A stretch of 64,000 nucleotides of DNA, taken from positions 31,189 through 95,188 of the forward strand of contig CAZUXT010000004.1 of NCBI GenBank assembly GCA_964624145.1. The letters run 5' to 3'. The notes below the pieces were generated by a model. The model made no database searches and had not been told where the DNA came from. It worked only from the letters and a program-made list of their open reading frames with translations. Below, piece by piece: positions 24,561-49,889 of this stretch. Origin of the DNA: an uncultured Eubacteriales bacterium (GTDB taxonomy: Bacteria > Acidobacteriota > Aminicenantia > Aminicenantales > Aminicenantaceae). The first letter of the stretch is position 1; every line of letters starts with the position of its first letter. The translations under genes were made by a program, and so were the position numbers.

Positions 24561-25178
24561 CTATCTGTTAACTTTTTCGATCACTCCGCATGAAATCAGG
24601 ACCTCAACGATATCCATGACTTCATGCAGACAGTCATCACTGATGCCGGCTTTGCGTGAGATTTCCTCAAAGGTGCAGGGTTCTTCTGTGGGAAAAGGGA
24701 GATGAAACAGGAAACGTCCCTGGCAGTCTGTTAAGTTGTACCGTCTTTGCCTGCGGGACCGGCCCTTCCCTTGGAAAACATCAACAGCAGAAATCTTCTC
24801 ACCACGGCTCTCTTTAAACAGAGCTCCGGAATTTTTACGCTCTCTTATTCTCCATGCCATCTTAAAGGAATAGGCCGCAGGATCATAGAGCTTATCCAGA
24901 TCAAAGCGTATATTGACTTTTTGTTCCTTAAGAAAATATCTGAAATAAGGCCTTTTTCCCTCTGCGGCCTCCCTTTTATCCAGGATTCCTTCTCTCTCCA
25001 GTCCCTCCAGAAAATCCTGAGCTGTTTTGATATGGATTCCCAAGCGGGCTGCTGCTTCTGACGCGGAAATGTCATTATAAATAACAAGAAGCTTTAAAAA
25101 TTCCTGTGCGTAATCTTTTGCTATAAGAGCGGCCAGGCGGCGGGATTTTTCGAAAGGCGAAATCCTTTTGTTCTCCAT
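24561..25178 (-). CDS. Hypothetical winged-helix DNA-binding protein
   Basis: A 205-aa protein from the ATG (MENKRISP...) that is preceded by GGAGA. It has an HTH-like segment (ISASEAAARLGIHIKTAQDFLEGLEREGIL). The ORF-track upstream extension overlaps the neighbouring gene and is rejected. Confidence 0.45.
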   Translation of the reverse strand: MENKRISPFEKSRRLAALIAKDYAQEFLKLLVIYNDISASEAAARLGIHIKTAQDFLEGLEREGILDKREAAEGKRPYFRYFLKEQKVNIRFDLDKLYDPAAYSFKMAWRIRERKNSGALFKESRGEKISAVDVFQGKGRSRRQRRYNLTDCQGRFLFHLPFPTEEPCTFEEISRKAGISDDCLHEVMDIVEVLISCGVIEKVNR

Positions 25179-25194
25179 CGAATCATTCTCCTGC

Positions 25195-25965
25195 TCAGGT
25201 GGAATTGAGTCTATCCAGGATTTTTCCCGGTGTCCCATCTACATACCACTGTATGAACTGCTTGAACAACCCTCCCAAAGACACGCACAGCTGGTCAAAA
25301 GTCAGCTCTTCTTTGTACTTTCTATAGTCTCGCCGGGCAATCCGGACAGTGACATTTCCTGAATTTTCAAAGGCCACATAGGTTTCGTTATTATAACTTT
25401 TTTTGAATAAAATCATATACAGCCACATATATTCAGGAATGACAAGCACCACTCTATCGGATTCGATGAACGGAAAGACCACCACATATTTTTTAAGATA
25501 CCTGGACAATCCCAGTGCATCCTTCCTTGTAAAATTGGCAGGACCTGTAGGAAAAGGGCGATGGGTGAAGCCGTCTGCGGTTTCTTTCACAGGCTGGGCA
25601 GCCAGTTCCAAAATCTCCTTATAGCGCCAGTTGATTCTTTTTGAAATAAGGACAAAAATAAAAGCAAAAAGAAAGACCGCTGAAAGACCGGCAAAGCAAG
25701 GATGCCAGGGATGGTCAGCAAGCGGCGGGAGAAAAGTCAGACCCCAAAGAAAATACATGCTCACAGGGATCAAATAAATCAAATACCGGGTCCTCAGCAA
25801 TACAAAAAAATGCATCACGGTAAACAGGAATTGTATGGAACCGAACACCCAGTAAAAACCTGGGGGTCCGAAGAATATCCGGGCAAGTGCTACGGCTAAA
25901 AAGAGAACAAGAGTGAATAACCACATGCCAACCTGAACAGGCTTTAGTTTGACTTTCCTTTCCAT
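25195..25965 (-). CDS. Hypothetical integral membrane protein
   Basis: It has 5-6 predicted transmembrane helices and an AAGGAG ribosome-binding site 6 nt upstream of the ATG. It matches no family I can name. Confidence 0.5.
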   Translation of the reverse strand: MERKVKLKPVQVGMWLFTLVLFLAVALARIFFGPPGFYWVFGSIQFLFTVMHFFVLLRTRYLIYLIPVSMYFLWGLTFLPPLADHPWHPCFAGLSAVFLFAFIFVLISKRINWRYKEILELAAQPVKETADGFTHRPFPTGPANFTRKDALGLSRYLKKYVVVFPFIESDRVVLVIPEYMWLYMILFKKSYNNETYVAFENSGNVTVRIARRDYRKYKEELTFDQLCVSLGGLFKQFIQWYVDGTPGKILDRLNST

Positions 25966-26089
25966 TATAGCTCCTTTATTTAATTTTATTAAACTTCATT
26001 TCATTTGAAGTATATCTAAATCATAGTATCTTGTCAAGCATAAAATAAAATTGAAGGGAAAAAAGCAAAAAAGTATGGTGCCCCTGCTT

Positions 26090-27649
26090 TTAGAGGGGGG
26101 ATACTTCAGAGAATTCTATACCCTTGCTCTCAAGGGTTGTCCCCAGAGTTCTTTCCAGAGCAGCCAGGGCAAGGTTATAATCAATAATGGCTCTGATTTC
26201 ATTGTTTATGGCATCTGCCAGATCTCTTTGATACTGAAGCACCGTGTAGTTTGTAGAAAGTCCCACTCTCAGCCTTTTCTCTTCGGCTTTCAGTGTCTTG
26301 TCAGCCAGTTCTTTGGCAGCTTTATACGCCAGGACCCTCTCGTAACTGGACTTAACCATTCGTACAGCGTTTCTTATTTCCAGAAAGGCCTGCTGTTTCT
26401 CATTCTGCAGCCTCAGCTTTGCTTGTTTGAAGTTCATCTTTGCCTGTGCGAACTGAGCCCGGGAAAAAATCGTATTCACTGGAATGGAAAGAATCAATCC
26501 TACAGACCAGTTTTTATAGGCAAAAGAAAACGTATCTTCCAAAGCTTTGGTCGCATTTCCCGGTAATGTCCCTACAACCACATCTGTGAGCGGATTATTA
26601 TCCTGATAAAACAACTTGGTTCCGGAGACGCCGGGGCTCCAGTACCGAGCCTGCAGATCCAGGCCGGGAAGAAGCTGGTTCCTGGCGTATTTTAATTCAA
26701 TATCCCTGCTTTCTATGTCAATCCGGCTTGCTTCAAGGTCAGGCCGGTTCTGTATTCCTATAAGCAGTGCCTCATCAAGTTCTATATCCCTCTCTTTGTA
26801 AGTGGGCCTATCAGAAGGAGTTATCTTTATTTCCTTTATATCCCCATCCCCTGCAAGATTGATAATGGTTTTTAACGCATCCTCATTATTCTTGACCAGA
26901 TACTCGGCCTCTATGATATCAGCTTCTCTGGCTGCGACTTCAGATTCAGCACTCAAAATCTCTATGGGAGCCATCATACCGACTTCCACTTCTCTCTTGT
27001 TTTTCGCCAGGAGATCCCGGGCAAGAGCCAAAGATTGTTTCTTTGCATTAAGGTTTTCTATGCTGTACACATACTCCCAATAAGCGGCCTCAACATCATA
27101 AATCGTCTGTATGAGCGATACTTTAAAATTTGCCTCTGATATTTGAGTGCTTTTATTCGCTACAATGATCTCCCTCCGGTTCACTTTAAATCCAAAATCT
27201 CTTAAAAGAGGCTGGGTCAATGTGAAGGACAAGGTGCTTCCATAGCGGGGATTTATGGTCAGATACTTCGCAGTGGTATCACTTTTGTAAGAATAAATAT
27301 ACGCTGAAAGAGTCCCCCCTGTAGGAAAGAGCTGTTCCAACTGGACTGAGTAATCATTAAAGAGAGAAGTGACCTTGCCTGCGGACTCAATCCAGGAATA
27401 GGAAGGATTATTGGTCTCCTCTGTGCCGTAATTGAGAGAGAGCGAAGGCAAAAATTTCTCTTTGGCAAGGGAAGCTGACATGTCAGCTATTTCCGGATTT
27501 AAGATTTCCACCGCTATACTGAGATTGTTTTCCAGCGCCAAGATTATACAGTCTTCAAGAGCAAGCGACTTTTGATTCTCCTGTCCGCTAAAATTGATTG
27601 TTGAAATAAGAAAAACGGCCATGCCCACGGCTGTTATTTTTTTATTCAT
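26090..27649 (-). CDS. TolC-family outer-membrane efflux protein
   Basis: The protein has a signal peptide (MNKKITAVGMAVFLIST), tandem TolC/OEP repeats with coiled-coil segments, and an AGGAGA ribosome-binding site. It is the last gene of the efflux operon. Confidence 0.85.
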   Translation of the reverse strand: MNKKITAVGMAVFLISTINFSGQENQKSLALEDCIILALENNLSIAVEILNPEIADMSASLAKEKFLPSLSLNYGTEETNNPSYSWIESAGKVTSLFNDYSVQLEQLFPTGGTLSAYIYSYKSDTTAKYLTINPRYGSTLSFTLTQPLLRDFGFKVNRREIIVANKSTQISEANFKVSLIQTIYDVEAAYWEYVYSIENLNAKKQSLALARDLLAKNKREVEVGMMAPIEILSAESEVAAREADIIEAEYLVKNNEDALKTIINLAGDGDIKEIKITPSDRPTYKERDIELDEALLIGIQNRPDLEASRIDIESRDIELKYARNQLLPGLDLQARYWSPGVSGTKLFYQDNNPLTDVVVGTLPGNATKALEDTFSFAYKNWSVGLILSIPVNTIFSRAQFAQAKMNFKQAKLRLQNEKQQAFLEIRNAVRMVKSSYERVLAYKAAKELADKTLKAEEKRLRVGLSTNYTVLQYQRDLADAINNEIRAIIDYNLALAALERTLGTTLESKGIEFSEVSPL

Positions 27650-27674
27650 TTTGAATCTCCTAAAATTCCTCATT

Positions 27675-28343
27675 TTAAAGCTCATCCACTATCCATCCGT
27701 CAAGCAGATTAATGATCCTCCGTCCATAGGCCGCATTTTTTTCTGAATGAGTGACCTGAATGATGGTGGTTCCGGCCTCATTAAGCTCTTTGAGAAGCTT
27801 CATCACATCTTCGCCTTCTTTTGTATTCAAATTACCCGTTGGTTCATCCGCAAGTATTAATTTGGGACTTATGATAACGGCTCTGGCCACCGCGACTTTC
27901 TGCTGCTGCCCTCCTGAAAGCTGGTTCGGAAAAAGATTCTTTTTTCCCACGATATTAAACCGATCCAGCATGTCACATACTTTTCCCTTGCGTTCAGAGC
28001 CTTTTACTTTTTTATAAAGAAGAGGGGTCTCCAGATTCTCATAAACAGTCAGGTCGTCTATAAGATGGTACTGTTGGAATACGAAACCAATATGATTTTT
28101 ATGAAGGTCTGTGAGCTGTTTTTCGGTCATCCTGTGGACCGGTCTGTCATAAAAGTAATACTCCCCCTTTGAGGGCTTATCAAGCATCCCTAAGATATAA
28201 AGAAGGGTTGATTTGCCGGCACCGGAAGGGCCCATTATGGTGATGAACTCACCTTCTTTGACATCAAGGTCTATATTTCGAAGAGCATAGGTCTTGACGA
28301 ACCCGGATGAATAATATTTGTTTATCTTTTTACATTTTATCAT
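27675..28343 (-). CDS. ABC transporter ATP-binding protein (MacB/LolD type), second copy
   Basis: Walker A (GPSGAGKST), signature ([14 protein letters not shown]) and Walker B (ILADEPT) are present. An AAGGAGA ribosome-binding site precedes the start. Confidence 0.9.
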
Positions 28344-28384
28344 TCCCGTCTCCTTTTCTTTTCAATAAATCCTGCCATGTCCCT

Positions 28385-28660
28385 TTACTTTTTTTTCAAT
28401 TCTCCCTTTCTTCTGAACATAATAGGGATATTCGCATCCGTCGGCATGCCAATTTCAATAAGCTTCCAGTCTTTATTGTATTCCTTAATAACGCGTTTTA
28501 TCACATCAACCTTATCCACACTGTCACCATTATGGTCTTCCCAGTCTATGATCTCGACTTTGTAGTGCAGTGTTCTTTTTTTTCCGTTTATTTTCACTTC
28601 TATATCAATATTCTGTTCGGCTCCTAATGTTGGTATTTGAAGCACGACTTCTCTCATCAT
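28385..28660 (-). CDS. Hypothetical small protein (91 aa) inside the efflux operon
   Basis: A strong Shine-Dalgarno site (GAGGAGA) lies 4 nt upstream of ATGATG. The protein has no transmembrane helix and is Lys/Asp-rich. I cannot assign a family. Confidence 0.5.
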   Translation of the reverse strand: MMREVVLQIPTLGAEQNIDIEVKINGKKRTLHYKVEIIDWEDHNGDSVDKVDVIKRVIKEYNKDWKLIEIGMPTDANIPIMFRRKGELKKK

Positions 28661-28866
28661 ACACTCTCCTCAAATGTTATTTTAAAACAATCGCTTGTCC
28701 ACGCTTATTTAATAAGCAAAAAATATGCCATTCTCTCTTCTTGAGGAATAAATTTAAACTTATGTTTTTTTTTGTAAAAACTGTCCGTTATTGAACATCT
28801 TCTGTCCTGACAGCGGACACTTATTTAAATCAATGAAAAGCTGTCTCCTATATAAAGACACCCGGG

Positions 28867-31191
28867 TCATTCATAGCGTATCGAATCAGCCGGATTTGCA
28901 AAAGCGGATTTCAATGATTGATATCCGACAGTAAGGAGCGCAATGGTCAAAGCCAAGCCGCCTGAAAGCAAATACACCCACCAGCTGATGCTGATACGGT
29001 AGGCATAGTTCTGCATCCACTGGCTCGCAACATACCAGGCAATGGGCAAGGCAATGACATTTGCCGCCAGTACCCATTTTGTGAAATCCTTAGAAAGCAT
29101 GAGGACAACACTTGAAACAGAAGCACCGAGAACCTTGCGTATTCCGATTTCTTTGGTCCGTCTTCCCGCCATATAACTGGCCAATCCAAAAAGGCCCAAA
29201 CAAGAAATAAATATGGCAAGAAAAGTGAAGTCATTGATGATCCGTCCCATTCTCTGGTCAGTTTGATACTGCCTGTTAAAAATATCATCCAGAAAATCAT
29301 ACTCAAAAGGATAACCAGCCGCAAACTGCTTCCAGGTAGCCTCCATAGCCCGAAGAGCTGACTGGGCTCTTTCCGGATTCGTGCGGACAAAGATATAATT
29401 ATGAGGCCAATTCGTGGTGAGAGTGAACACCACTGGTTTGATTTCATCATGCAGAGAACGGGAATGGAAATCCTTCACAACACCGATGATCCGGCCCTCA
29501 CGCGTCCATATAGAGAAAAGCTTGCCCAAGGGAGATTCAAGTCCTGTAAACCTTACCGCGGCCTCATTAATGACGTAATTCTGTGCATCCGTTGTAAAAT
29601 CACGCGAAAAGCTCCTCCCCTCCGCAAAATCCATTTGAAAGGTCTTAAAATAATCATAATCCACGGCTGTGAAATTTATCACTTCATACTGGTCAGGTCC
29701 TCTCCCTTCCCAGTATACGGGATTGATATTTCCTATGCTTAAAGGGACATTGGAAGCTGAAGTGACGCTCAGAATATCGGAATTCTCTAACAGTGACTGT
29801 TTGAAAGCATCATAATGATTTTGAATCTCCTGATTCATGGGCAGTCTCAAAACATAGCTGCGGTTAAAACCTAAATCCTTATTCCGGATATAATTCATCT
29901 GCCTTTGCAGAACAATGGAGCAGAAAATAAGAACCACCGCAACAGTGAACTGAAAAACCACAAGAACTCTTCTTAATACCGGACTCTTTAAATTCAGTGC
30001 GCCGGACTCCCTCAGCGCTTGTATCGGAGTGAAGGACGAAAATAGAAGAGCCGGATAACTCCCGGAAAAAACACCTGTGAAAAAAGCTACCCCTAAAAGC
30101 GATAAAATCAACGGGACATTATGTGCGGGATCAAAGGTCAACTGTTTTTGAGTCAGATTATTGAAACTCGGCAGAAAAAGGGAAACCATAAGAACGGCCA
30201 GAACAAATGCCATGAATGATATCAACACAGCCTCTCCAAAAAACTGCTTTATAAGATGACTTCTATTGGCTCCGACCACTTTTCTCAGGCCAACTTCCAC
30301 AGCCCGGTTTCCTGATTTTGCTGTGGTGAGATTTATAAAATTTATGCAGGCAACGATCAGGATGATAAAGGCTATGGCAGAAAAGATATAAATATAAAGG
30401 ATGCTCCCTGCATCATTTAATCCGTAAAGGTGCATGCGTGAAACGGGCTGGAGGTCATTGATAACCGTTTTGTTCTCAACCCTTTGATCGTATTTCATGG
30501 TAGTGCCGGAAACTTTCGGCTTCAAATCTTCGAGAGAAATGTTTTCCTCTAACATGACAAAAGCCTCTGTTTCCAGAGCCCAGGTTCTGATCCGCTCCTC
30601 TCCCAGGATTTGAACCGGCACCAGCACATCGAACTGAAGGGTTGAATTGGAAGGAACGTTTTGTATCACTCCGGTTACTTTAAGGTCCATGTTGTTATTG
30701 ACATTCAGGATCTTACCGACAGGATCTTCATTCCCGAAATACTTGTGGGCGGCTTTTTCAGATAATATGATCGAGTCTCTTCCGGACAAGGCCGTATCCG
30801 GATTACCCTGGATGAGGGGGAAAGAAAACATATGGAGAAAGTCCGGATCCACAAATCCAACTTCTTCATAATTGGAAGATTCCTCATATCTCGCTAAGAG
30901 ATTGATCGTCCTAAACCTGGTGGCCCTTACGATCTCCGGAAAATCATCCTTAAGAACATCACTGATAGCCCAGGGACTGGTCGATGTCCATTCTCCCTCA
31001 AGACTGGAGACGACCCTGTAAAGCCGCCCCTCATTGTCATAAAACCGGTCATAACTGGTCTCATCCTGTATCCACAGAAATATGAGGATGCAGCAGGCCA
31101 TTCCCACGGCCAATCCGACAACATTGATAAAAGAATAGACTTTATACTTCTTGATATTCCTAATAGCTGTTTTAATATAGCTTCCCACCAT
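28867..31191 (-). CDS. FtsX-family ABC transporter permease (double FtsX/MacB-like)
   Basis: The N-terminus (MVGSYIKTAIRNIKKYKVYSFINVVGLAVGMAC) and the C-terminus (...NPADSIRYE) are typical. It lies between the two ATPase genes. Confidence 0.85.
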   Translation of the reverse strand: MVGSYIKTAIRNIKKYKVYSFINVVGLAVGMACCILIFLWIQDETSYDRFYDNEGRLYRVVSSLEGEWTSTSPWAISDVLKDDFPEIVRATRFRTINLLARYEESSNYEEVGFVDPDFLHMFSFPLIQGNPDTALSGRDSIILSEKAAHKYFGNEDPVGKILNVNNNMDLKVTGVIQNVPSNSTLQFDVLVPVQILGEERIRTWALETEAFVMLEENISLEDLKPKVSGTTMKYDQRVENKTVINDLQPVSRMHLYGLNDAGSILYIYIFSAIAFIILIVACINFINLTTAKSGNRAVEVGLRKVVGANRSHLIKQFFGEAVLISFMAFVLAVLMVSLFLPSFNNLTQKQLTFDPAHNVPLILSLLGVAFFTGVFSGSYPALLFSSFTPIQALRESGALNLKSPVLRRVLVVFQFTVAVVLIFCSIVLQRQMNYIRNKDLGFNRSYVLRLPMNQEIQNHYDAFKQSLLENSDILSVTSASNVPLSIGNINPVYWEGRGPDQYEVINFTAVDYDYFKTFQMDFAEGRSFSRDFTTDAQNYVINEAAVRFTGLESPLGKLFSIWTREGRIIGVVKDFHSRSLHDEIKPVVFTLTTNWPHNYIFVRTNPERAQSALRAMEATWKQFAAGYPFEYDFLDDIFNRQYQTDQRMGRIINDFTFLAIFISCLGLFGLASYMAGRRTKEIGIRKVLGASVSSVVLMLSKDFTKWVLAANVIALPIAWYVASQWMQNYAYRISISWWVYLLSGGLALTIALLTVGYQSLKSAFANPADSIRYE

Positions 31192-31229
31192 AGTACGCCC
31201 TTTTAATAAAGTAAATAAAGCCTTAACAT

Positions 31230-31448
31230 TTACTTTTGTTGAACTCTGAACAGCACCCCTTTGAGATAACCAGAATCATTGATCTCAGCAATGTATAATC
31301 CTGGCTGCATATGGGCCTTTTTTTTGAGCATGGGTGCTGACAGATTATTCAGAAGGTCACCTGCTTCCCATTTTTTGTTATTGGTATCACACAAAAATAT
31401 TGGCGCGTTCTTTTCTACAAGTTTTTCTAGAATTTCACGGAGAAACAT
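31230..31448 (-). CDS. Hypothetical small protein (72 aa) inside the efflux operon
   Basis: The ATG (MFLREILEKL...) is preceded by a GAGGA site. The ORF-track start is a GTG 18 nt upstream. The C-terminus (GLYIAEINDSGYLKGVLFRVQQK) loosely resembles secretion-tail or beta-strand motifs, but I cannot assign a family. Confidence 0.4.
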   Translation of the reverse strand: MFLREILEKLVEKNAPIFLCDTNNKKWEAGDLLNNLSAPMLKKKAHMQPGLYIAEINDSGYLKGVLFRVQQK

Positions 31449-31502
31449 TTTATCCTCTACAATCACTTAGCCTGACCTATTCCTAAAAAAGGCCGCCAAG
31501 CA

Positions 31503-32192
31503 TCATATCATAAACTCTTCTTGAATATTCTCTGAGACAACGTGACCATCGAAAAGATGGACTGTACGGTTGGCATACTCTGCATAGCTTGGAGAGTGCG
31601 TCACCATTACGATAGTTGTGCCCGCCTCATGAAGCTCGCTCATAATTTTCATGACTTCTTCACCGTGCGCCGAATCCAGATTACCAGTGGGCTCATCAGC
31701 AAGTATCAGTTTAGGCCGGGCTACAACGGCTCTTGCCACTGCCACTCTCTGCTGTTGTCCTCCGGATAACTGCTGGGGAAAGTGATTCTTCCTGGCAATT
31801 ATTTCCATCTGCTCAAGGACTTCACTGACTCTCTTCTTCCGATCCCCAGAAGAATAACCAAGGTATAGGAGGGGCAGTTCCACGTTCTCGAATACGGTCA
31901 GCTCATCGATCAAATTAAAACTCTGGAATACAAAACCGATGTTGGATTTGCGCAGATTTGCACGTTTTCGTTCAGAAAACGAAGAGACTTCAGTGTCAAC
32001 AAAATAATATTTGCCGTCTGTTGGCTTGTCAATCAAGCCCAGTACATTAAGCAGAGTGGATTTTCCGCATCCTGAAGGTCCCATAATCGCCACATATTCT
32101 CCTGCTTTAATATCCAGATTCACATTGTTCAGGGCTGTTGTTTCTACCTCCTCTGTAGTGTACACCTTTTTAAGGTCCTCAGTTTTAATCAT
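31503..32192 (-). CDS. ABC transporter ATP-binding protein (MacB/LolD type), first copy
   Basis: Walker A (GPSGCGKST), signature (LSGGQQQRVAVARA), Walker B (ILADEPT) and an H-loop (VTHS) are present. Confidence 0.9.
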   Translation of the reverse strand: MIKTEDLKKVYTTEEVETTALNNVNLDIKAGEYVAIMGPSGCGKSTLLNVLGLIDKPTDGKYYFVDTEVSSFSERKRANLRKSNIGFVFQSFNLIDELTVFENVELPLLYLGYSSGDRKKRVSEVLEQMEIIARKNHFPQQLSGGQQQRVAVARAVVARPKLILADEPTGNLDSAHGEEVMKIMSELHEAGTTIVMVTHSPSYAEYANRTVHLFDGHVVSENIQEEFMI

Positions 32193-32258
32193 GTTTGTTC
32201 TCCTTACAATAGTTTCCTCTTTTTATATTATATAAGACGTAAACTAACTGCATTTAGT

Positions 32259-33515
32259 TTACTTTAAAACCAATCTTTCCATATCACCAAAACTCTCATA
32301 GGAGGAAGTTATGACTTTTTCTCCGGGCTCCAGCCCTTCAAGGACTTCATAAACATCAGGATTCTGCCTCCCCAGCTTTATTCTCCTCTTCACGGCTATA
32401 TTCTCAGATTCATCCACAACATACACCCAATTTCCTCCGGTGGTCTGATAAAACCCTCCTCTCGGGAGGAGCAACGCTTCAGAAATATCTCCCAGCTCAA
32501 GCCGGATGTGAAGTGTTTGCCCGCGGGTGATTCCTTCAGGCTCTTCATCTACAAATTCCATGTCAACCTCAAAACGTCCCTCTCTGACCTCAGGATATTT
32601 CTTGGTTACCTTAAGTATATATTCTTGACCGGCAAACTCAAATTCGCCCGAACGTCCCTCTTCTACACGAGCTATATAATGCTCATCAATCTGTGCTCTG
32701 ACTTTGAAACCCTCAAAGACATCTATCTGTCCGATGTTTTGACCTGCAGATTTTGACTGACCGATTTCCGCATCCAGAGAGGTGAGATGGCCTGATACGG
32801 GCGCTCTGATAGTCAATTTTTTCAGCCTGTTCTGGATGATCTCCATGTTGCCCTGCATTCGCTCGACCTGACCTTCCAAAGCGTTGACCTGATTTTCTCT
32901 GAATTCCAGATCCTTTTGCTGACTCTCAATGGTCAATCCCCTGCTCTTTTTGAGATACTCATATTGATCTTTTGCCAGCTCGTACTCATGTATTGAAATC
33001 AAATCATCTTCATATAATTTCTCGTAGCGTTCATATGTTCTTTTCTGCTGCTGAAGGTTATTATCGATAGTTGTCAGTTCCTGGCTCAGTTGGAGCCTGT
33101 AGCGTTCCATCTCCAGCCGTGTATTTCGAAGGTTGTTGACCTGCTGGAACAATTCAGCTTCCCTCCACATGCTGTTTATCAACAAATCTGTATTTGCCAG
33201 CTTTAATATCCTATCTCCCTTTTCCAGAACATTTCCCGCTTTAATATAGATCTCCTCCACTGTTCCACCTTCTTCCGCACTTAAATAGAACTGATATTTA
33301 GGAAGAACATTACCCATAATGGGAATGAATTCCTGGAACGGCCCTCTGCTGACCGTTGAAACCGTCAGTCTCTCGGCTTTTACATTTAAGGATGATTTAC
33401 TCACTCCAAATATGAGCATATAAACAACCACAATGACAAACAATCCCGCAGACGCAAAAGTTGCGATTTTTTTTAGGGTCCACTTCTTTTTTTTGATTTT
33501 TTTGTCCATACTCAT
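32259..33515 (-). CDS. HlyD-family periplasmic adaptor (MacA-like membrane fusion protein)
   Basis: It has an N-terminal transmembrane anchor, a long coiled-coil, and beta-barrel/lipoyl-like domains. The start is taken at MSMDKK, with an AGGAGA Shine-Dalgarno site. The ORF-track start 15 nt upstream is also possible. Confidence 0.85.
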   Translation of the reverse strand: MSMDKKIKKKKWTLKKIATFASAGLFVIVVVYMLIFGVSKSSLNVKAERLTVSTVSRGPFQEFIPIMGNVLPKYQFYLSAEEGGTVEEIYIKAGNVLEKGDRILKLANTDLLINSMWREAELFQQVNNLRNTRLEMERYRLQLSQELTTIDNNLQQQKRTYERYEKLYEDDLISIHEYELAKDQYEYLKKSRGLTIESQQKDLEFRENQVNALEGQVERMQGNMEIIQNRLKKLTIRAPVSGHLTSLDAEIGQSKSAGQNIGQIDVFEGFKVRAQIDEHYIARVEEGRSGEFEFAGQEYILKVTKKYPEVREGRFEVDMEFVDEEPEGITRGQTLHIRLELGDISEALLLPRGGFYQTTGGNWVYVVDESENIAVKRRIKLGRQNPDVYEVLEGLEPGEKVITSSYESFGDMERLVLK

Positions 33516-33649
33516 TTTAGATCTCCTCACTTAGACTCTTCATAAAAAAGGTTGATGCGGGTGGTAAAACAAAAAGCTTTTGTGAATAATCAGGATTCAT
33601 CATTTTCAACTTTTTCTGTAACATGTTCATCTCACTCAACGAATTGTTC

Positions 33650-33665
33650 TGCAATAATTGTGCCA
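33650..33665 (-). promoter_or_regulatory. Sigma-54 (-24/-12) promoter, TGGCAC-N5-TTGCA, reading toward the HlyD-family gene
   Basis: The plus strand at 33650-33665 reads TGCAATAATTGTGCCA, so the minus strand reads TGGCACAATTATTGCA. This is an exact match to the sigma-54 consensus and lies about 135 nt upstream of the HlyD-family start. Confidence 0.7.
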
Positions 33666-33718
33666 TATTTGATTCTCAGGGAAAATCTATTAAAAAATGG
33701 TTTCATCTTCGACAAAAG

Positions 33719-33759
33719 TGTTCATTGAAGAACAAATACTGTTCAAAATCGAACAGTTC
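33719..33759. promoter_or_regulatory. Putative enhancer (UAS): three overlapping TGTTC-N5/6-GAACA palindromes
   Basis: TGTTC is at 33719-23, GAACA at 33730-34, TGTTC at 33740-44 and GAACA at 33751-55. These lie 54-94 bp upstream of the -24 element, next to the divergent NtrC-type activator gene. Confidence 0.5.
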
Positions 33760-33883
33760 GTGTATAATACATCCTTATTCATGTGTCATTCAGCCTGGGA
33801 AAAAAAGAAACAGAAAGGCACATATCTTGCATCTACTTATAAAAAAGAAAACCAATAACAAAAAATAGGATGGAGATGCGAAT

Positions 33884-35260
33884 ATGAAAAAAAAATCAGG
33901 AAAAATTCTTGTCATAGATGATGATGAAGATATTCTTCAGGCAGCCCGTCTTCTTCTGAAACAACACGTTAGTCAGGTACATACTGAAAAAACACCCGGC
34001 TCGATTCCCACGCTCCTAAAAAACGACAGTTATGATGTCATTTTCCTGGACATGAACTTTGCCAAAGGTGCAACCAGCGGAGAAGAAGGATTCCATTGGC
34101 TCGATAAAATTCTAGAATTGGATCCCAGTGCTGTCATAGTCCTGATAACAGCCTATGGAGATGTGGAAATGGCAGTAAAAGCGATCAAAGAAGGTGCCAC
34201 TGATTTCATACTCAAGCCCTGGCAGAACGAGAGATTGATTGCTACCCTTTCCGCGGCTATGAATTTAAGGAAAAGCCGCACAGAAGCAAAAAGCCTCCGC
34301 TCCAAACAAAAACAGCTCAGTCAGGACTTAGACCAGCCTTTTCATGAATTCATAGGTAAAAGCCCTGCCATTCAAAACGTTTTTTCTGACATACAAAAGC
34401 TTGCCCAAACAGATGCCAATGTTTTGATACTGGGTGAGAACGGCACAGGAAAAGAATTGGTCGCAAGGGAACTCCACCGCCAGTCTTCAAGAGAGGGAGA
34501 AATTTTCATCAGCGTGGACATGGGAGCATTGAGTGAAACCCTTTTTGAGAGTGAACTTTTCGGCCACACTAAAGGAGCTTTTACAGACGCAAAAGAGGAC
34601 CGTGCAGGACGATTCGAGATAGCGTCGGGAGGAACTCTATTTCTGGACGAAATCGGAAATCTGCCTCTGACCCTCCAGGCCAAACTGCTCACGGTCATTG
34701 AAAACAGGAAAGTAACCCGGCTCGGTTCCAATAAGGTCATTGAAATAGATGTGCGTCTCATATGCGCTACGAACATGAATATACATGAAATGGTCACTAA
34801 TGATAAATTCAGACAAGACCTGCTCTATCGAATAAATACAGTGGAAATAAGGATTCCTCCTTTAAGTGAAAGGATTGAGGACATCCCCCTTTTAGCAGAA
34901 CATTTTCTCAACATTTATTCCAAAAAATACAACAAACCCATAAGTAAAATCAGTCCCTCCACAATGAAACGCCTTGAAAAGTACAAATGGCCGGGAAATG
35001 TTAGAGAACTCCAGCATGCTTTGGAAAGATCTGTGATAATGAGTGAATCCCGCACTTTACAGCCTTCGGACTTTTTCTTTTCTACTTCGGAATCAAAAGG
35101 GAACTCTCTGGCATATAAAGACTTTAATCTATCCGGTCTTGAAAAACTGGCCATACGTAAGGCTTTAGATAAACACAACGGAAATATATCCAATACAGCC
35201 AAGGAACTGGGTATATCAAGAGCTTCCCTTTACAGAAGAATGGAGAAATATGGCTTATAA
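33884..35260 (+). CDS. Sigma-54-dependent response regulator (NtrC/Fis family enhancer-binding protein)
   Basis: It has a receiver domain ([11 protein letters not shown]...D55), an AAA+ sigma-54 interaction domain ([21 protein letters not shown]) and a C-terminal Fis-type HTH. Confidence 0.9.
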
Positions 35261-36572
35261 AAATTTCAGAATCAACTGCTTCATCCGCATTTTAGTACTT
35301 GCGCTGACCATCCTTGCCTTTTTTCTCATCATGACTCATACCTCTTTATACAGTGCTTTGATCATAATCGGAGCTGCCATTATCTATCAAACCTATGCTT
35401 TAATCCATTATGTCGAAAAAACAAACAGGGATTTAACCCGTTTTTTCGAATCGATAAAATACAGCGACTTCTCCCAATCCTTTAAAGATTACGGAAGGGG
35501 AAAATCATTTGATTCGTTGAAAAATTCTTTTTCTGAAGTCATAGAGGCTTTCAGAAAGACAAGAGCGGAAAAAGAGGAACAAGCCCGTTATCTGCAGACA
35601 GTTGTCAAACACATAGGAGTCGGACTGATCGTTTTTCAACCAAATGGAGAGGTTGAACTTATAAACAAAGCGGCAAAGCAGCTTCTCGGAATCAACCAGC
35701 TCAAAAACATAAAATCTCTTAGCTCTAAAAAACTCGTCAAAGAACTTTTAAAGCTCCAACCAAGAGAAAAAGCCACTGTAAAGGTCGAAATCGACAATGA
35801 AGTCCTGCATCTCTCTCTCTATGGAACGGAATTCAAACTCGGAGGTAACAAATATTCCCTTATATCCTTACAAAACATCCACAGTGAGTTGGAGGAGACT
35901 GAAATAGAAGCATGGCAGAAGCTTATAAGAGTCCTCACTCATGAAATCATGAATTCTGTAACTCCCATATCCTCACTGGCTTCCACAATCCATGGTCTGG
36001 TAAATGAAAACATGATTTCTGAATCTCTCACCGATGTCAAGGATGCGGCCCAGACTATAAAGAAAAGAAGCCAAGGGCTGATGCATTTTGTGGATGCTTA
36101 CAGAAATTTAACATTGATAAAAAAACCGCATTTTGAAATATTTCCGATCAAAGAACTTTTCAACAGAATTGAAAAACTGATGCAGGCAGATTTTAAAGCA
36201 AAGAAGATAAAGCTTAAAATCAAGATTAAACCCGAGACTCTCGAACTCACTGCGGACACAGAACTCCTGGAGCAGGTACTGATAAATCTTCTGCTTAATG
36301 CTCAACAGGCAGTGGAAGGCCGCAAAAAAGCAGAAGTCACTCTGGACGCAAGGCTGGACAAACGGGGAAAAATCATCATTGAAGTCAAAGATAACGGACC
36401 CGGTATTCCTAAAGACAATCTTGAGAAAATATTCATACCATTCTTCTCAACCAAAAAAGGGGGCTCGGGAATAGGTCTGAGCCTTTCCAGGCAGATCATG
36501 CGTCTCCATAAAGGCTCTATAGGAGTGCATTCAAATCCTGATACAGAAACATCCATCATCCTCAGCTTCTAG
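35250..36572 (+). CDS. Sensor histidine kinase (partner of the NtrC-type regulator)
   Basis: It overlaps the response-regulator stop by 11 nt. It has two N-terminal transmembrane helices with no periplasmic loop, an H-box ([12 protein letters not shown]) and HATPase_c motifs (DNGPGIP...GGSGIGLSL). Confidence 0.85.
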
Positions 36573-36609
36573 AAAAAAAAGAATGATGGATGCTTCCTAT
36601 CCTTTTCTC

Positions 36610-38517
36610 TTATTTTTTGCCGGAGCTTTTGCTTCCTGAAGTTGACGTTGCTGAGCCGGATTTATTCGAAGATCTTGACCCTGAACGCGAGGCACTGCCG
36701 GAACCGGACTTTCCTCCTCCGCTTCCCGCTGCGGAATAGAAACTGTTTCCAGAACTGATTTTGCTCATTGGTGAAATACGAACATTCCCGGAAGAAAGCC
36801 GCAGCTCAGGACAACTGATCTCATTTCTGCTCCCTGAATAAATTATGGATACCCCCATCTCACGAGCCGCTTTTATGTCAGGATTCCAGTCTCTGAATCT
36901 CATTTGAGCTGCTTCATTGCCAGAAGCAGCAGCGCCTTTGGTGGGAAACCCGGCAGCTGTTTTTGTCAAAGAATTTTTTGTATAGGCTCCTCTCTCCTGA
37001 TCAATTGGATTGCTTTCTGTCTCAGGGCTTTTTATAGCTCTATAAGCGTCAACTATTTTTGTGTTGAGTTCTTGTTGAGAAAGTTGAGAAAAGGTTTCCC
37101 CGTCACCTCTGCTGAATTCATCCAAACCTATGATTTTATTTTGTATATCAGGGGATGTGATCCATTCGTGCTTGACAAATGAGGCGCTGTCTCTTATATG
37201 AAAGTAGGATGAGAGAAAACCATTCTCACCTCTTCTTGCTGCTTTGAGTATATTCTTAAATGCCTTCTTCAAGGCTCCTGTTAAAACGAATTGGGGATTG
37301 CTTTTTCGGCTCAGGTTCTGCAGACTGACATTGGGCAGACCTCCCCCCAAATCTTCCTTATCCGGCATCCATGAATCATCCATAAAGGACCAATCCAACC
37401 AGTCCAGAAAAGTCCAGGGCCTCCAGGAAAAATAGCCTGTCAGCATACTGGGCTGAATTAAATAATCCCAGTAAACCCATGCCGGAGAAAAGGCAGAACC
37501 AGGGATCCAGAGCCATCCTTTTTTCTCATGCCAGACCCAGATCCCAAGATGGTAAGGAGCCCACCCCCAGGGTTCCTCAGGGATCCAGAACATGTGACCG
37601 TTCACTGCGGTCCACTGCCCGTAGTAGTAGGGCTGCCAGCCCCCCGGATAGTATCGATAATGAAAAGGACTCCATACATATCCGTAAAAATCATCCCACA
37701 GCCATTCTCCATACGTGGTTGAATACTTTTCCGCAAAATATATGACTGCATCCGGGTACCTGTACACAGGCTTGGGCAGAGGGCTTTTTCCTTCATGAAG
37801 CTCTTCAAAGTTCTTATTTATTTTTTTGTTCCAGAGCACAAAATCAGAACTCTGAGTCTCATCCAAATAATCGAGTTTATGCTCTTTCCTGACCCTGACC
37901 ATCTGTGCTTCTTTTATCTTTTCCTGTTTCAGGTTGTCCTCATCAGGTCCGTACAAAACAAAAGCTCTCCCCTGCAATACTTTTATATCCGTGCTGCCGT
38001 CTTCATTCAGGGTTATCACTGCCACTGAATTCTGATCCATATTCAAAGCGGCGTTGGGAGTCATGACCTGGAATAACTCCTGAATCATATAGCTCTTGTA
38101 CATCACATAAACCTGCCCTTTTTCAAGAACGAGATTTGTTAACTTATTCCGAGAGCTGAGAGTCTGCGCAAGGATGGTCTCTATTCTTACCTGTGTATTT
38201 TCTTCCAGTCTGAGGATAATCCCCGTGTCAAACTGCACTTCGCATCTTCCGTCACTGTCTGTTCGAACAGTATTTCCCGGGGCAACAGGAAAGTTCAAAA
38301 CCGCATATTCAGGGCCAATCTGGTCTTCCTTGTAAACAATAGGCTGGGATTTATCATTTTCGATATAACTTATATGTCCGAAATAGACATCCAGGCCCTG
38401 CTTTATGGCATATCTGTATTGAGTGTTGGAAAAAGCTGAAGTTGAAAGGGCGACAAACAAAGCCAATGACACGAAGATAACACTTATTTTTCTGCAAAAA
38501 TATTTTTCTCTTTTCAT
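36610..38517 (-). CDS. Secreted FecR-domain protein with a Trp/Tyr-rich central region and a Ser/Gly-rich C-terminal tail
   Basis: It has a signal peptide and a FecR-like N-terminal beta-sandwich (NFPVAPGNTVRTDSDGRCEVQFDTGIILRLEENTQV). The central region has extreme W/Y density (WVWSPFHYRYYPGGWQPYYYGQW...). The tail is low-complexity (SGSGSASRSGSRSSNKSGS). Confidence 0.6.
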   Translation of the reverse strand: MKREKYFCRKISVIFVSLALFVALSTSAFSNTQYRYAIKQGLDVYFGHISYIENDKSQPIVYKEDQIGPEYAVLNFPVAPGNTVRTDSDGRCEVQFDTGIILRLEENTQVRIETILAQTLSSRNKLTNLVLEKGQVYVMYKSYMIQELFQVMTPNAALNMDQNSVAVITLNEDGSTDIKVLQGRAFVLYGPDEDNLKQEKIKEAQMVRVRKEHKLDYLDETQSSDFVLWNKKINKNFEELHEGKSPLPKPVYRYPDAVIYFAEKYSTTYGEWLWDDFYGYVWSPFHYRYYPGGWQPYYYGQWTAVNGHMFWIPEEPWGWAPYHLGIWVWHEKKGWLWIPGSAFSPAWVYWDYLIQPSMLTGYFSWRPWTFLDWLDWSFMDDSWMPDKEDLGGGLPNVSLQNLSRKSNPQFVLTGALKKAFKNILKAARRGENGFLSSYFHIRDSASFVKHEWITSPDIQNKIIGLDEFSRGDGETFSQLSQQELNTKIVDAYRAIKSPETESNPIDQERGAYTKNSLTKTAAGFPTKGAAASGNEAAQMRFRDWNPDIKAAREMGVSIIYSGSRNEISCPELRLSSGNVRISPMSKISSGNSFYSAAGSGGGKSGSGSASRSGSRSSNKSGSATSTSGSKSSGKK

Positions 38518-38712
38518 GCTGATACTCCTTTTTCTTTGCTTGCCATCTAGAAATGCAAATAATATGCCAAAATAAATCTAAGGCATAACAGGAGGAAACC
38601 GGGTGAGGAGAGTGACCTATTTTGAATGCAGTTGACCGTTTTCTGGTACAACCAAGATACACACAGAATCCTTGAATATATGAGCTAAATCTTATATAGT
38701 CTGGATTATTCA

Positions 38713-40068
38713 GTGAATCAAAAAAAGAAGACTTCCGGAACACTTGAAGATTATTCCTTGAAACCGGTCCCCTTATCTGAGAGAAAATCCTGGATTAGCC
38801 TGACCATCATCTGGATAGGGATAGCGGTAGTCATGTCCGCTATTTTCCGCGGCATGATGATCGGTCTCGGATTGGGGAAAATAACAAGTATCCTGCTTTC
38901 CTATGTCCTTGGGGAGATACTCCTTGTGGGGATCATGGGCCTTTCCGGATATATCGGAGCCCGAACAGGGCTGTCCACACCCCTTATAGCAAACTTCTCC
39001 TTTGGACGGATAGGATCTATACTGATATCTTTGTCCATAGCCCTGTCTCTTCTAGGCTGGTTTGGAGTCCAGGCTGCTTTTTTCGCACGAACTATTCAGT
39101 ACTTCATCCATTCGGATTTTTCGCTGCCGCTTTTTTCATTCATATGCGGGATCATTATGATGATTCCCGCCATTTTTGGCATCAGGGGGCTCAGCACTCT
39201 CAGTTGGATAGCCTCTCCATTTGTGATCCTGATATTCATAATAGGATTTGTAAAAAGCGGATTCCATTTCCTTCCCGCTCAAACCCTTATCTCCCTAGCT
39301 CAACACCACCAGCCCGACCCCTATCCTATAACCATAGGCGCTGCTGCCTCTGTTGTAGCAGGAGGATTTATCGTGGGAGCCACTACCAGCGCGGACATAT
39401 TTCGTTATTCCAAACCCAAAATAAAAAACATTTTCGGAGCTGCGTTTGTTGCTATGCTGGTAAGTGCCTTTCTCCACCTTGTTGGTTCTGTTTTTGCTAT
39501 GAATACAGGACTTTATCACGAAAATCTGCCAGAACTTATCATATCTCCAGCCTATCTTGGTCTGGGATTTGTTGGCTTCCTGGTCCTTCTGCTTGCGCAG
39601 TGGACCACAAATGACAGCAATATCTACTCATCTGTTCTTGCTCTGAACAATATATTCAAGACAAAAAGATGGCTGGTCACCATAGGAGCCGGACTCATTG
39701 CCTCTGCGCTGGCAGCACTGGGCATCTTAGAAAGATTGGAACTGTTCCTTGTTTTTCTTACCGTAAGCATCGGACCCATAGGAGGGATCTTTATTTGCGA
39801 CTATTATTTATTAAGAAGACTCAAACCATCCGGGCTCAAAGAAAAAAACATACAGGCAGTCAATCAAAAAGCACTGGGAGTCTATCTTATATCCGTAGTT
39901 ATCGGATGGCTTACGTCAGGACATCCGTTTACCATAAACATTTTTCCCTTCTCGATTTTTGCTTTTAACGGAATCATATCCTCAATCATCCTCTATTATG
40001 TCATCATGAAAATATTTCCGAATAAGGAGAAGACAAATGGCCCTGAAACAAGTCATAGAAACCTATGA
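38713..40068 (+). CDS. NCS1-family nucleobase (cytosine/purine-type) permease
   Basis: It has 12 predicted transmembrane helices and the N-terminal LSERKSW motif typical of CodB-like permeases. The start is apparently GTG. The 3' end overlaps the next gene. Confidence 0.75.
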   Translation: MNQKKKTSGTLEDYSLKPVPLSERKSWISLTIIWIGIAVVMSAIFRGMMIGLGLGKITSILLSYVLGEILLVGIMGLSGYIGARTGLSTPLIANFSFGRIGSILISLSIALSLLGWFGVQAAFFARTIQYFIHSDFSLPLFSFICGIIMMIPAIFGIRGLSTLSWIASPFVILIFIIGFVKSGFHFLPAQTLISLAQHHQPDPYPITIGAAASVVAGGFIVGATTSADIFRYSKPKIKNIFGAAFVAMLVSAFLHLVGSVFAMNTGLYHENLPELIISPAYLGLGFVGFLVLLLAQWTTNDSNIYSSVLALNNIFKTKRWLVTIGAGLIASALAALGILERLELFLVFLTVSIGPIGGIFICDYYLLRRLKPSGLKEKNIQAVNQKALGVYLISVVIGWLTSGHPFTINIFPFSIFAFNGIISSIILYYVIMKIFPNKEKTNGPETSHRNL

Positions 40069-48227: not shown

Positions 48228-49889
48228 TTAATCATTCAAGAAAGACTTCAATTTCTGCCTTCGACGTGGCCCTCTTAACTTCCTTAGTGCCTTGGCTTCA
48301 ATCTGTCTTATTCTTTCTCGTGTGACTTTAAACTGCTGCCCGACTTCCTCAAGAGTGTGTTCATTACCACTTCCCAACCCAAAACGCATTCTGAGAACTT
48401 TTGCCTCTCTTTCCGTTATGGAATCCAGAACTTCCTCTATTTTCTCTTTTAATGTAATGTTTACAACAGTCTCAGGAGGAGAGGGGAGGATCTTGTCTTC
48501 AATAAAATCACCTAACTGGCTGTCGTTGTCCTCTCCTATGGGAGTTTCCAGAGAAATAGGCGCCTGGGAAAGCTTAATGATTTTTCTCACTTTATGGATC
48601 GGCATATCCATTCTTTTGGCCAATTCCTCACATTTTGGCTCCCTGCCCCTTTCTTGAACAAACTTTTGAGATTGTTTGATCAGTTTATTGATAGTCTCGA
48701 TCATGTGGACAGGGATTCTGATAGTCCTTGCCTGGTCACAAACAGCTCTTGTTATTGCCTGCCTGATCCACCAGGTGGCATAGGTCGAAAACTTGTATCC
48801 TCTTTTGTATTCGAATTTACTGACCGCCTTTATCAATCCGGTGTTCCCTTCTTGAATCAAATCCAAAAAATGAAGCCCTCTGTTGATATATTTCTTAGCA
48901 ATTGAAATGACTAACCTTAAATTTGCCGCAACCAACTCTTCCTTGGCCTGATCGCTCATCTTCTGTTCCATCTTAATGGTGCGCATTATCTTCTTCATTC
49001 CATCAAAATCAAGCCCCACCTCTTCCTGCATCACATGAATCAGTCTTTCTGTATCTTTTATCTGCTTTCTTATGATGAGTTTCTTTTTTCTCTTTCTTTT
49101 GCGCCTGTACTTGGCCTCCAAATCCTCCTTGATCTCTTCTAGCCTGTTAATCCCTTCCAGTTTTAACCGCAAATTCTCAGTAGCTCTCTCAATAATCTCA
49201 GGCTTGATCTGGAGAGACCTCAATAATTGATTTATTCTGGAAAGAATTCGGAGGCGTTTTATGCTTCTCTTATCAGATCCAGGTATCTGTTCAAGTTTTG
49301 AATACCCTTCCTTAATCTGAGAGATTATGTCGAAAATCCGGTCTTCTCTTGCTTCCTGAGGCTCACCTGAAGCGTTGCCTTCATCATAATCAAACATATT
49401 GTTCAGGATTCTTTTATGCAGTTCATATCTGTCTCTGACATCACAAATCAATTCAAATAAAAAAGGAGTCTCAGAAAGCGCTTTTATAATATTTCTTTCA
49501 CTTCTTTCAATCTGTCTTGCCAGAGCGACTTCACCTTCTTTTGTTAAAAGAGAAATGCTTCCCATCTCCTTTAGATAGAGTTTTACAGGGTCAGTCGTTC
49601 TTTCAATCCCCCTTATCCGTGTTTTTTCAGGTTTTTTTGGACGCTGCTTGATTTCTCTTTGTTTGTTTCTGAGTTTAATCTTATATCTATCCAAGGATTC
49701 AATAAATCCATCAAACTCTTCGTCAGTGTCAAATCCTTCCTCAAGCAAACCATTTATCTCTTCTATAAAGAGATACCCTCTTTCTCTTCCGAGCTGGAGG
49801 ATCTTCCTGATTTGCTCGTTTTTTTCAGAACTGTACTTCTTTTTCTTTTTTACCTTGGTCTGAGTGAAGAACTCCGGATTACTTGCCAT
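48228..49889 (-). CDS. rpoD: RNA polymerase sigma factor RpoD (primary sigma-70)
   Basis: Region 2 ([39 protein letters not shown]), region 3 and region 4.2 ([28 protein letters not shown]) are present, with a long N-terminal 1.1/non-conserved region. Confidence 0.95.

Follow-up and report, generated by a model that had tools for sequence, protein, structure and literature searches.

At the glnAp1/glnAp2 promoters governed by NtrBC and at the pspF/pspA promoters governed by PspF, the activator binds about 80-110 bp upstream of a sigma-54 promoter, at sites that also overlap a sigma-70 promoter, so that the latter is shut off by the bound activator. In the BceRS-BceAB modules for peptide detoxification in Firmicutes, a two-helix kinase with a minimal outside loop stands beside an FtsX-fold ATP-binding cassette (ABC) transporter regulated by it. 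In E. coli and Salmonella, the two-component pair ZraSR controls divergent sigma-54 promoters, which serve its own operon and an envelope-related target, zraP (PMC4987338). Recently, an in-silico survey (PLoS One, 2025; PMC12316311) has reported that the upstream regions of COG0577 FtsX-type permease genes are enriched in predicted sigma-54 promoters in Bacteroidia, Opitutia and gamma-proteobacteria, and has termed this a previously unrecognised regulatory axis. Here, we analyse a stretch of 64,000 nucleotides (hereafter the window; contig CAZUXT010000004.1, positions 31,189 to 95,188) from an uncultured bacterium of the Aminicenantales, in which a -24/-12 element and two palindromic dyads lie between the gene of an HlyD-family adaptor and the divergent genes of an NtrC-type response regulator and its histidine kinase. 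We propose, with a probability of about 0.8, that the regulator and the kinase form a sigma-54 switch that controls a MacB-type tripartite ABC exporter.

The layout resembles that of ZraSR and zraP. However, the regulator is not an orthologue of ZraR (331.9 bits against a cutoff of 760), though ZraR (1ojl) is found together with the Aquifex aeolicus NtrC-family proteins among its closest solved relatives. In addition, the target is a tripartite ABC exporter instead of a periplasmic chaperone, the kinase lacks a sensor domain in the periplasm, the sigma-54-contacting loop of the regulator is GAFTDA, and the putative operator, TGTNCG-N4-CGNACA, is derived from sequence comparison alone. The logic of glnAp1/glnAp2 and that of pspF seem to be combined, as dyad 2 overlaps the -35 element and the spacer of a candidate sigma-70-type promoter with the -10 box TATAAT. 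However, the operon faced here by both the sigma-70 and the sigma-54 promoter is that of the regulator itself, with the main target on the opposite side; the score of the regulator for the NtrC equivalog is below the cutoff, and it contains a REC domain, which PspF lacks. With MacAB-TolC, the locus shares an HlyD-type adaptor, an FtsX-fold permease with the MacB periplasmic core, a MacB/LolD-like ATPase and a TolC-like channel, but MacB proper is an N-terminal ATPase fused to a four-helix permease, whereas two separate ATPase genes and a duplicated permease of 774 aa are present here. Like the Bce modules, the locus places the gene of a kinase whose two transmembrane helices are joined by a minimal loop beside those of an FtsX-fold ABC transporter; unlike them, it has a regulator of the NtrC type rather than the OmpR type, a cytoplasmic PAS-like region in the kinase and a transporter of the tripartite Gram-negative type. 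As for the survey, the part of its text considered here does not mention Acidobacteriota, HlyD genes, a cognate regulator, an operator, or a divergent or internal layout. It was the only item that turned up in our literature search for experimentally characterised sigma-54-controlled MacB/HlyD systems, and the search returned no experimental study of the present regulator family and none on sigma-54 or rpoN in Aminicenantes.

The HlyD-ward promoter element, its dyads and the divergent regulator

The exact pattern TGGCAC-N5-TTGCA occurs only once on the two strands of the window, on the minus strand (the HlyD-ward promoter, Table 1), against 0.06 copies expected from shuffles, 5 of 100 of which contained at least one. 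It agrees with the consensus at every position, the -24 GG (33664-33663) and the -12 GC (33652-33651) being exactly 10 bp apart, and stops 134 nt upstream of the ATG of the HlyD gene (33515). This bears out an earlier model-made reading of the same DNA (hereafter the sequence-only reading), in which an exact sigma-54 consensus was placed on the minus strand about 135 bp upstream of that gene. The HlyD-ward transcript is predicted to start at about 33640 and to carry a 5' untranslated region of about 125 nt; among relatives, the length of this region ranges from 21 to 134 nt. No sigma-70-like match was found on the HlyD strand anywhere in the spacer between the regulator and HlyD genes. The relaxed pattern GGCAY-N5-TTGCW has four matches in the window against 0.56 expected, all of which are intergenic and oriented toward a gene. 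A search of 28300-38800 against Rfam gave no match above noise, so no known leader RNA is recognised there. An open reading frame (ORF) of 81 aa across the spacer on the plus strand (33623-33868) was rejected, since relatives show indels and unalignable sequence at that place.

Two exact copies of TGTTC-N6-GAACA, dyads 1 and 2, are found 54-90 bp beyond the -24 element of the HlyD-ward promoter. They are the only copies in the window, where 0.05 are expected, and none of the 100 shuffles contained two. Their centres are 21 bp apart, and the centre of dyad 1 is at about -87 from the predicted HlyD-ward start and at about -115 from the predicted regulator-ward sigma-54 start. The looser form TGTNC-N6-GNACA matches three times, at the two main dyads and at 28782-28797, every time in the efflux module. 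The sequence-only reading had described three overlapping palindromes, two of which are these dyads; the third, GAACA-N5-TGTTC (33730-33744), is a mere junction of the two, and its spacer is not conserved in relatives. A near-palindrome at 31237-31252, within the coding sequence of orf72 and with no promoter nearby, was also set aside as chance. Three A-tracts lie between the promoter and dyad 1, and the alignment of Aminicenantes spacers shows a recurrent A-run directly next to dyad 1. These phased tracts (33682-33717) may provide an intrinsic bend that aids looping, in place of a site for integration host factor.

As had also been noticed earlier, the divergent genes encode a response regulator and a histidine kinase. 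The Response_reg, Sigma54_activat and HTH_8 domains of the regulator score 70.5, 229 and 48.9 bits, respectively, all above the Pfam cutoffs. The phosphorylatable position D56 of REC, Walker A (GENGTGKE at 184) and Walker B (LFLDEIG at 252) are conserved in orthologues, and a Fis-type helix-turn-helix occupies residues 419-456. Besides ZraR, the regulator stays below the NCBIfam equivalog cutoffs of PrsR (PEP-CTERM; 402 bits vs. 502.6), AtoC (370.7 vs. 714), NtrC (359 vs. 558.6) and GlrR (300.7 vs. 763), and no equivalog cutoff is reached. In the kinase, the loop that joins the two N-terminal transmembrane helices has no more than 5 residues, a feature conserved across phyla according to the hydropathy profiles of the N-termini. 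The kinase is therefore of the intramembrane-sensing type, and it adjoins FtsX-fold transporter genes.

Conservation of the spacer among related loci

A genome collection was scanned with the regulator as query, and the best 80 loci (designated by L-numbers below), with 62-95% regulator identity, come from Candidatus Aminicenantes, KSB1, Ignavibacteria, Calditrichota, Rhodothermales and many Bacteroidota. In 57 of these 80 loci, which belong to at least five phyla, the regulator-kinase pair has an HlyD gene in divergent orientation no more than a few hundred bp away. Given this pairing and the survey mentioned above, the view of the sequence-only reading that sigma-54 control of such pumps is uncommon finds no support.

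The spacers of these 57 loci and that of the window (58 in all) were compared with dinucleotide shuffles, with a threshold of at least 10 of the 11 consensus positions including GG-N10-GC. Matches facing HlyD are present in 41% of the spacers and in at most 0.1% of the shuffles, and matches facing the regulator in 31% of the spacers and in none of the shuffles. When the 23 Aminicenantes spacers were aligned with MAFFT, they proved unalignable save for four to five blocks, namely, the HlyD-ward promoter, kept as TGGCAY-N5-TTGCW, dyad 1 (TGTNC-N6/7-NNACA), dyad 2 (GTGTNCGATATCGNACA), TATAAT in a subset, and the regulator-ward promoter. Aminicenantes and KSB1 have 82-86 bp between TGGCAY and the centre of dyad 2, and Bacteroidota have 96-98 bp. 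Strict helical phasing across clades (83, 97, 116-127 and 148 bp) is not claimed, since these distances do not differ by clean multiples of 10.5 bp.

All loci were also scanned for sigma-54 sites lying 30-125 bp downstream of a dyad, and 55 pairs were obtained. Those checked are all located at the efflux module, with none seen in an unrelated position. Dyad 2 is also located next to the regulator gene in loci of five phyla, including those without an HlyD gene (L078-L080), and we infer TGTNCG-N4-CGNACA as the operator consensus of the regulator. The core of the sequence-only reading, that is, a sigma-54 promoter and an enhancer through which the divergent NtrC-type regulator would control the efflux genes, is thus strongly backed by the comparison of genomes.

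Candidate regulator-facing promoters, internal copies and competing explanations

Several observations weigh against a sigma-54 switch, or against parts of it, and are considered here together with the explanations that they would favour. The first of them concern the regulator side of the spacer, where two candidate promoters were identified. P2, of the sigma-54 type, is predicted to start transcription at about 33842, and is kept as (A/C/T/G)GGCAY-N5-TTGCW in most Aminicenantes loci. P1, of the sigma-70 type, would consist of TATAAT and, 17 bp upstream, the -35-like TGTTCA (33740-33745), which is the left half of dyad 2. The window shares an exact TATAAT, exactly 7 bp past dyad 2, with 15 other Aminicenantes-type loci whose regulators are as little as 67% identical, whereas the 7-bp stretch itself varies; L002 has TATACT at the equivalent position. 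The -35 place is occupied by TGTTCA or TGTCCA in most loci with TATAAT, and by TGT(A/T)CG in most loci without it. This suggests that TATAAT belongs to a basal promoter of the regulator-kinase genes that is occluded by the bound regulator. The two divergent sigma-54 sites flank the dyads (33719-33755) in a layout that is conserved at the level of sequence, and a bidirectional enhancer is proposed, which would serve both the HlyD-ward and the regulator-ward sigma-54 promoters. The module that the sequence-only reading had called complete therefore holds in its core, but both P2 and TATAAT had been overlooked.

One could suppose that only the HlyD-ward sigma-54 promoter works, that the AGGCAC-N5-TTGCA facing the regulator is an inactive look-alike, and that TATAAT alone expresses the regulator and the kinase, without positive autoregulation. 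The first base of P2 is indeed A instead of the consensus T, relatives have it anywhere between 43 and 340 nt from the regulator ATG, the Bacteroidota relatives have no sigma-54-like site on the regulator side, and the TATAAT promoter alone could suffice. The -35 element of P1, for its part, is poor (3 of 6 positions), which counts against the role assigned to that promoter. However, GG-N10-GC with 9-10 of the 11 positions is kept at P2 in about 20 Aminicenantes spacers amid unalignable surroundings, where shuffles lead one to expect no match of at least 10, and P2 is also kept in loci without TATAAT (L012, L014, L016, L018, and L024). Moreover, divergent pairs of sigma-54 promoters are a known design, such as that of zraP/zraSR (PMC4987338). 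Consequently, an inactive P2 is considered unlikely.

A more radical explanation is that the regulator is independent of sigma-54, with a GAFTDA loop that no longer engages it, dyads that are only the operator of a sigma-70-type control, by repression or activation, and -24/-12 elements that are not used. The loop (residues 231-236) is GAFTDA, not GAFTGA, in the window as well as in 69 of the 80 orthologues across phyla, and this variant, in which F and T are retained, is a hallmark of the family. Dickeya VfmH, which also has GAFTDA, pulled down no sigma-54 (PMC10714721). The conserved TATAAT overlaps the dyad 2 region, and in many spacers of Bacteroidota, Ignavibacteria, Calditrichota and Rhodothermales (L036-L077), TGGCAY is kept, at 96-98 bp from dyad 2, while the C at -12 is A, T or G; this C is replaced (NTGA, NTGT) in roughly two thirds of L036-L077, with the G at -13 kept. 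As a point against a sigma-54 switch in general, a search for ORFs with the RpoN box in the window and the 80 related loci found no rpoN. Because the -12 C is not conserved in many Bacteroidota spacers, the dependence on sigma-54 is less certain across the whole family, and the claim is strongest for the Aminicenantes, the window included. On the other hand, Desulfovibrio vulgaris DVU2106 with GAFTDA is listed among the functional variants and active activators, with sigma-54 targets (PMC4641369), and the Walker motifs and the remaining AAA+ core of the present regulator are intact. Amid diverging flanking DNA, the -24/-12 elements keep a constant distance to the dyads. No sigma-70-like promoter is present on the HlyD strand of the spacer, and, as described below, the internal promoter and the orf91 promoters of other genomes have the same dyad-to-promoter geometry. 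Four conserved -24/-12 sites in 64 kb, together with a regulator whose AAA+ core is intact, lend indirect support to a working sigma-54. A sigma-54-independent regulator is thus given very little credence. An RpoD-like primary sigma-70 gene covering regions 1.1 to 4 was also identified in the window, at 48228-49889 on the minus strand.

The same combination of dyads and promoter is found once more within the efflux genes, between the permease gene and orf91, where transcription is predicted to start at about 28704. Measured from the -24 GG, the dyad centres are 81.5 and 60 bp upstream, compared with 83 and 62 bp for the main enhancer. The two control regions are collinear; their global alignment scores 10, whereas shuffles score -22.5 +/- 5.6. 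As a further point against the proposed wiring, this internal copy is present only in the window and in L003, a clade of 95% identity; L004 has neither the internal enhancer nor the internal promoter, and its permease-orf91 gap is just 47 bp. In L013, L028 and L031, orf91 alone is located downstream of the kinase gene, with two dyads of its own and TGGCATAATTATTGCA (at 4190-4520, 8193-8516 and 8843-9211, respectively), which on the sequence is an independent replicate of the dyad-promoter unit.

More pairs of a dyad and a sigma-54 site were observed inside the module of other Aminicenantes, at about 2847 of L008 and about 481 of L010, both on the minus strand. The former precedes an ORF of 110 aa (PadR-like by eye) and a permease gene, and the latter a second permease gene. 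The 110-aa ORF was compared with orf91 as a possible homologue and rejected. We also found a fourth sigma-54-type site, TGGCATATTATTTGCA (38569..38554, minus strand), 36 nt upstream of a FecR/DUF6600 gene (36610-38517). L001-L004 and L006 retain this site, with protein identities down to 62%. There is no TGT-N10-ACA dyad upstream of it; therefore, a different activator is likely for this site.

Could the sigma-54 promoters then be real, but activated by an enhancer-binding protein encoded elsewhere, with the dyads only autoregulating the adjacent regulator? The promoter without dyads at 38554-38569 makes at least one more activator in the genome likely. However, the dyads and the promoter co-occur at fixed spacing wherever the regulator gene is found, across phyla, and the pair also exists away from that gene (28715-28819, and orf91 in the three loci above), where autoregulation cannot be its purpose. 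An activator from elsewhere is therefore likewise given very little credence. Finally, chance in AT-rich intergenic DNA, or a palindrome that is a terminator hairpin, is extremely unlikely: a terminator scan did flag 33757..33738 as a hairpin followed by Ts, and the promoter pattern with one mismatch allowed is found 3 times against 0.96 expected, but the exact matches are rare and conserved across genomes with otherwise diverged spacers, and the flagged hairpin, which was rejected as a terminator, sits between divergently transcribed genes, so that no transcript needing termination arrives there. Taken together, the comparative results make chance, a terminator and an unrelated regulator poor explanations.

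Efflux genes, proposed mechanism and implications

Table 1. Control elements and genes of the efflux locus (coordinates refer to the window)
Feature	Coordinates	Strand	Remarks
HlyD-ward sigma-54 (-24/-12) promoter TGGCACAATTATTGCA	33665..33650	-	Of the HlyD-ABC1-orf72-permease unit; sole exact match in the window; 11/11
Enhancer dyad 1 TGTTCATTGAAGAACA	33719-33734	both	TGTNC-N6/7-NNACA kept in relatives
Enhancer dyad 2 TGTTCAAAATCGAACA	33740-33755	both	Most strongly conserved element of the spacer; TGTNCG-N4-CGNACA in the family
Three A-tracts	33682-85, 33692-97, 33714-17	both	11 and 21 bp apart, between promoter and dyad 1
P1, TATAAT, likely -10 box of a sigma-70-type basal promoter of the regulator-kinase genes	33763-33768	+	Putative function
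P2, second sigma-54-type promoter AGGCACATATCTTGCA	33816-33831	+	52 nt upstream of the regulator ATG; 10/11
Internal enhancer, 17-bp variant TGTCCGCTGTCAGGACA and TGTTCAATAACGGACA	28819..28803 and 28797..28782	both	
Internal sigma-54 promoter TGGCATATTTTTTGCT	28730..28715	-	Upstream of orf91-ABC2-OEP, in the 207-bp permease/orf91 gap; 9/11
NtrC-type enhancer-binding response regulator, 458 aa	33884-35260	+	REC / Sigma54_activat / HTH_8
Histidine kinase, 440 aa	35250-36572	+	Weak PAS match, H-box THEIMN at 230, HATPase_c
HlyD-family periplasmic adaptor, 418 aa	32259-33515	-	First gene of the unit; HlyD_3 55.5 bits
ABC ATPase 1 (ABC1), MacB/LolD-like	31503-32192	-	Pfam, NCBIfam
orf72, conserved 72-aa protein	31230-31448	-	No Pfam match
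Duplicated FtsX/MacB_PCD permease, 774 aa, ADOP-like	28867-31191	-	MacB_PCD 136 bits, FtsX 89 bits
orf91, conserved hypothetical small protein, probable part of the regulon	28385-28660	-	Synteny in relatives; own dyads and promoter elsewhere
ABC ATPase 2 (ABC2)	27675-28343	-	55% identical to ATPase 1
TolC-like outer-membrane factor	26090-27685	-	OEP 167 bits; last gene of the conserved unit

The ATG of the HlyD gene is preceded by a GAGGAG ribosome-binding site, and public gene calls on identical contigs give the same 418-aa product. The permease comprises two FtsX and two periplasmic-core (PCD) domains without a fused ATPase, and its closest solved relatives are MacB chains. Its match to the ADOP family TIGR03434 is full-length (residues 6-774) with 307 bits, below the cutoff of 622.3; the equivalogs of MacB (49 bits vs. 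966) and MacA (43.7 vs. 342) are not reached either, and the best matches, which are also sub-threshold, are the darobactin exporter families DarB, DarC and DarD. The gene orf72, which is overlooked when its stretch of the operon is read as a gap, lies between those of ATPase 1 and the permease in the window; in L005 and L006, its place is between the two ATPase genes. For orf91, 328 clusters were found, with no Pfam family and with the name 'hypothetical' wherever one is given, and its AlphaFold model from a 34-sequence alignment has a mean pLDDT (predicted local distance difference test) of 48.7 and is unusable.

The stop codon of the outer-membrane factor gene is followed by a T-rich hairpin, by TTGACA-17-TATACT (26037-26009, 11 of 12 positions) and by a ribosome-binding site. 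The next two genes, for a 256-aa protein and a TrmB-like protein (24561-26037), are missing in L005 and L006, where an epimerase gene comes directly after the outer-membrane factor, and on this comparison they are an insertion relative to these two loci. Given the hairpin, the promoter-like site and the absence of the next genes from L005 and L006, the conserved unit has seven genes; thus, the eight-gene operon of the sequence-only reading is replaced by a seven-gene unit that ends at 26090 and is split by the internal sigma-54 promoter. Two further duplicated FtsX/MacB_PCD permease genes were observed in the window, at 6076-8664 on the plus strand and 13253-15619 on the minus strand, with no sigma-54-type site or dyad near either of them. 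Upstream of the second one are genes of a histidine kinase (18048-19946) and an M1 peptidase.

The elements observed, their rarity and fixed spacing across genomes, and the domain content of the proteins are consistent with the following mechanism, in which the inducing signal and the pump substrate are likewise presumed. On induction, the membrane kinase would phosphorylate Asp56 of the regulator, whose dimers would bind both TGTNC-N6-GNACA dyads through the C-terminal Fis-type helix-turn-helix and assemble an AAA+ ring. DNA looping, perhaps aided by the phased A-tracts, would then bring this ring into contact with the sigma-54 RNA polymerase in the closed complex at the HlyD-ward promoter, which would be opened by ATP hydrolysis, so that the HlyD adaptor, ATPase 1, orf72 and the duplicated MacB-type permease are transcribed. 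In this species, the second copy of the control region (dyads 28819..28782, promoter 28730..28715) would drive orf91, ATPase 2 and the TolC-like channel. The main enhancer would also serve P2, resulting in positive autoregulation of the regulator genes, whereas the TATAAT promoter would supply the regulator at a basal level and, since dyad 2 covers its -35 element and spacer, would be occluded once the regulator binds.

A bolder and rather doubtful extension is that the regulators with the GAFTDA loop and the TGTNCG-N4-CGNACA operator in Acidobacteriota, KSB1, Ignavibacteria, Calditrichota and Bacteroidota might be one family that forms a Gram-negative, sigma-54-wired counterpart of the Bce systems. 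The kinase might then sense the activity of the MacB-type pump, orf91 and orf72 might be dedicated parts of the circuit, and the loss of the -12 C in Bacteroidota might reflect a co-adapted, relaxed recognition of the -12 element.

What is added here to the earlier picture is the proposed bidirectional enhancer, the overlapping TATAAT, the internal duplicate of the control region, the limits of the operon, the operator consensus and the phylogenetic breadth. The understanding of sigma-54 control is unchanged, as the design is classical, and the wiring is ordinary in kind, because the same wiring recurs in several phyla. However, the locus provides a testable regulatory map, with promoter positions, an operator consensus, likely autoregulation and a minimal regulon, for a candidate phylum without a cultured, genetically tractable member. 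The pairing of regulator and pump spans much of the FCB (Fibrobacteres, Chlorobi and Bacteroidetes) group and the Acidobacteriota, including the cultured Labilibaculum, Marinifilum and Ancylomarina. Because the pairing is so widespread, the operator could be used to annotate the regulon in many genomes and to seek its inducer.

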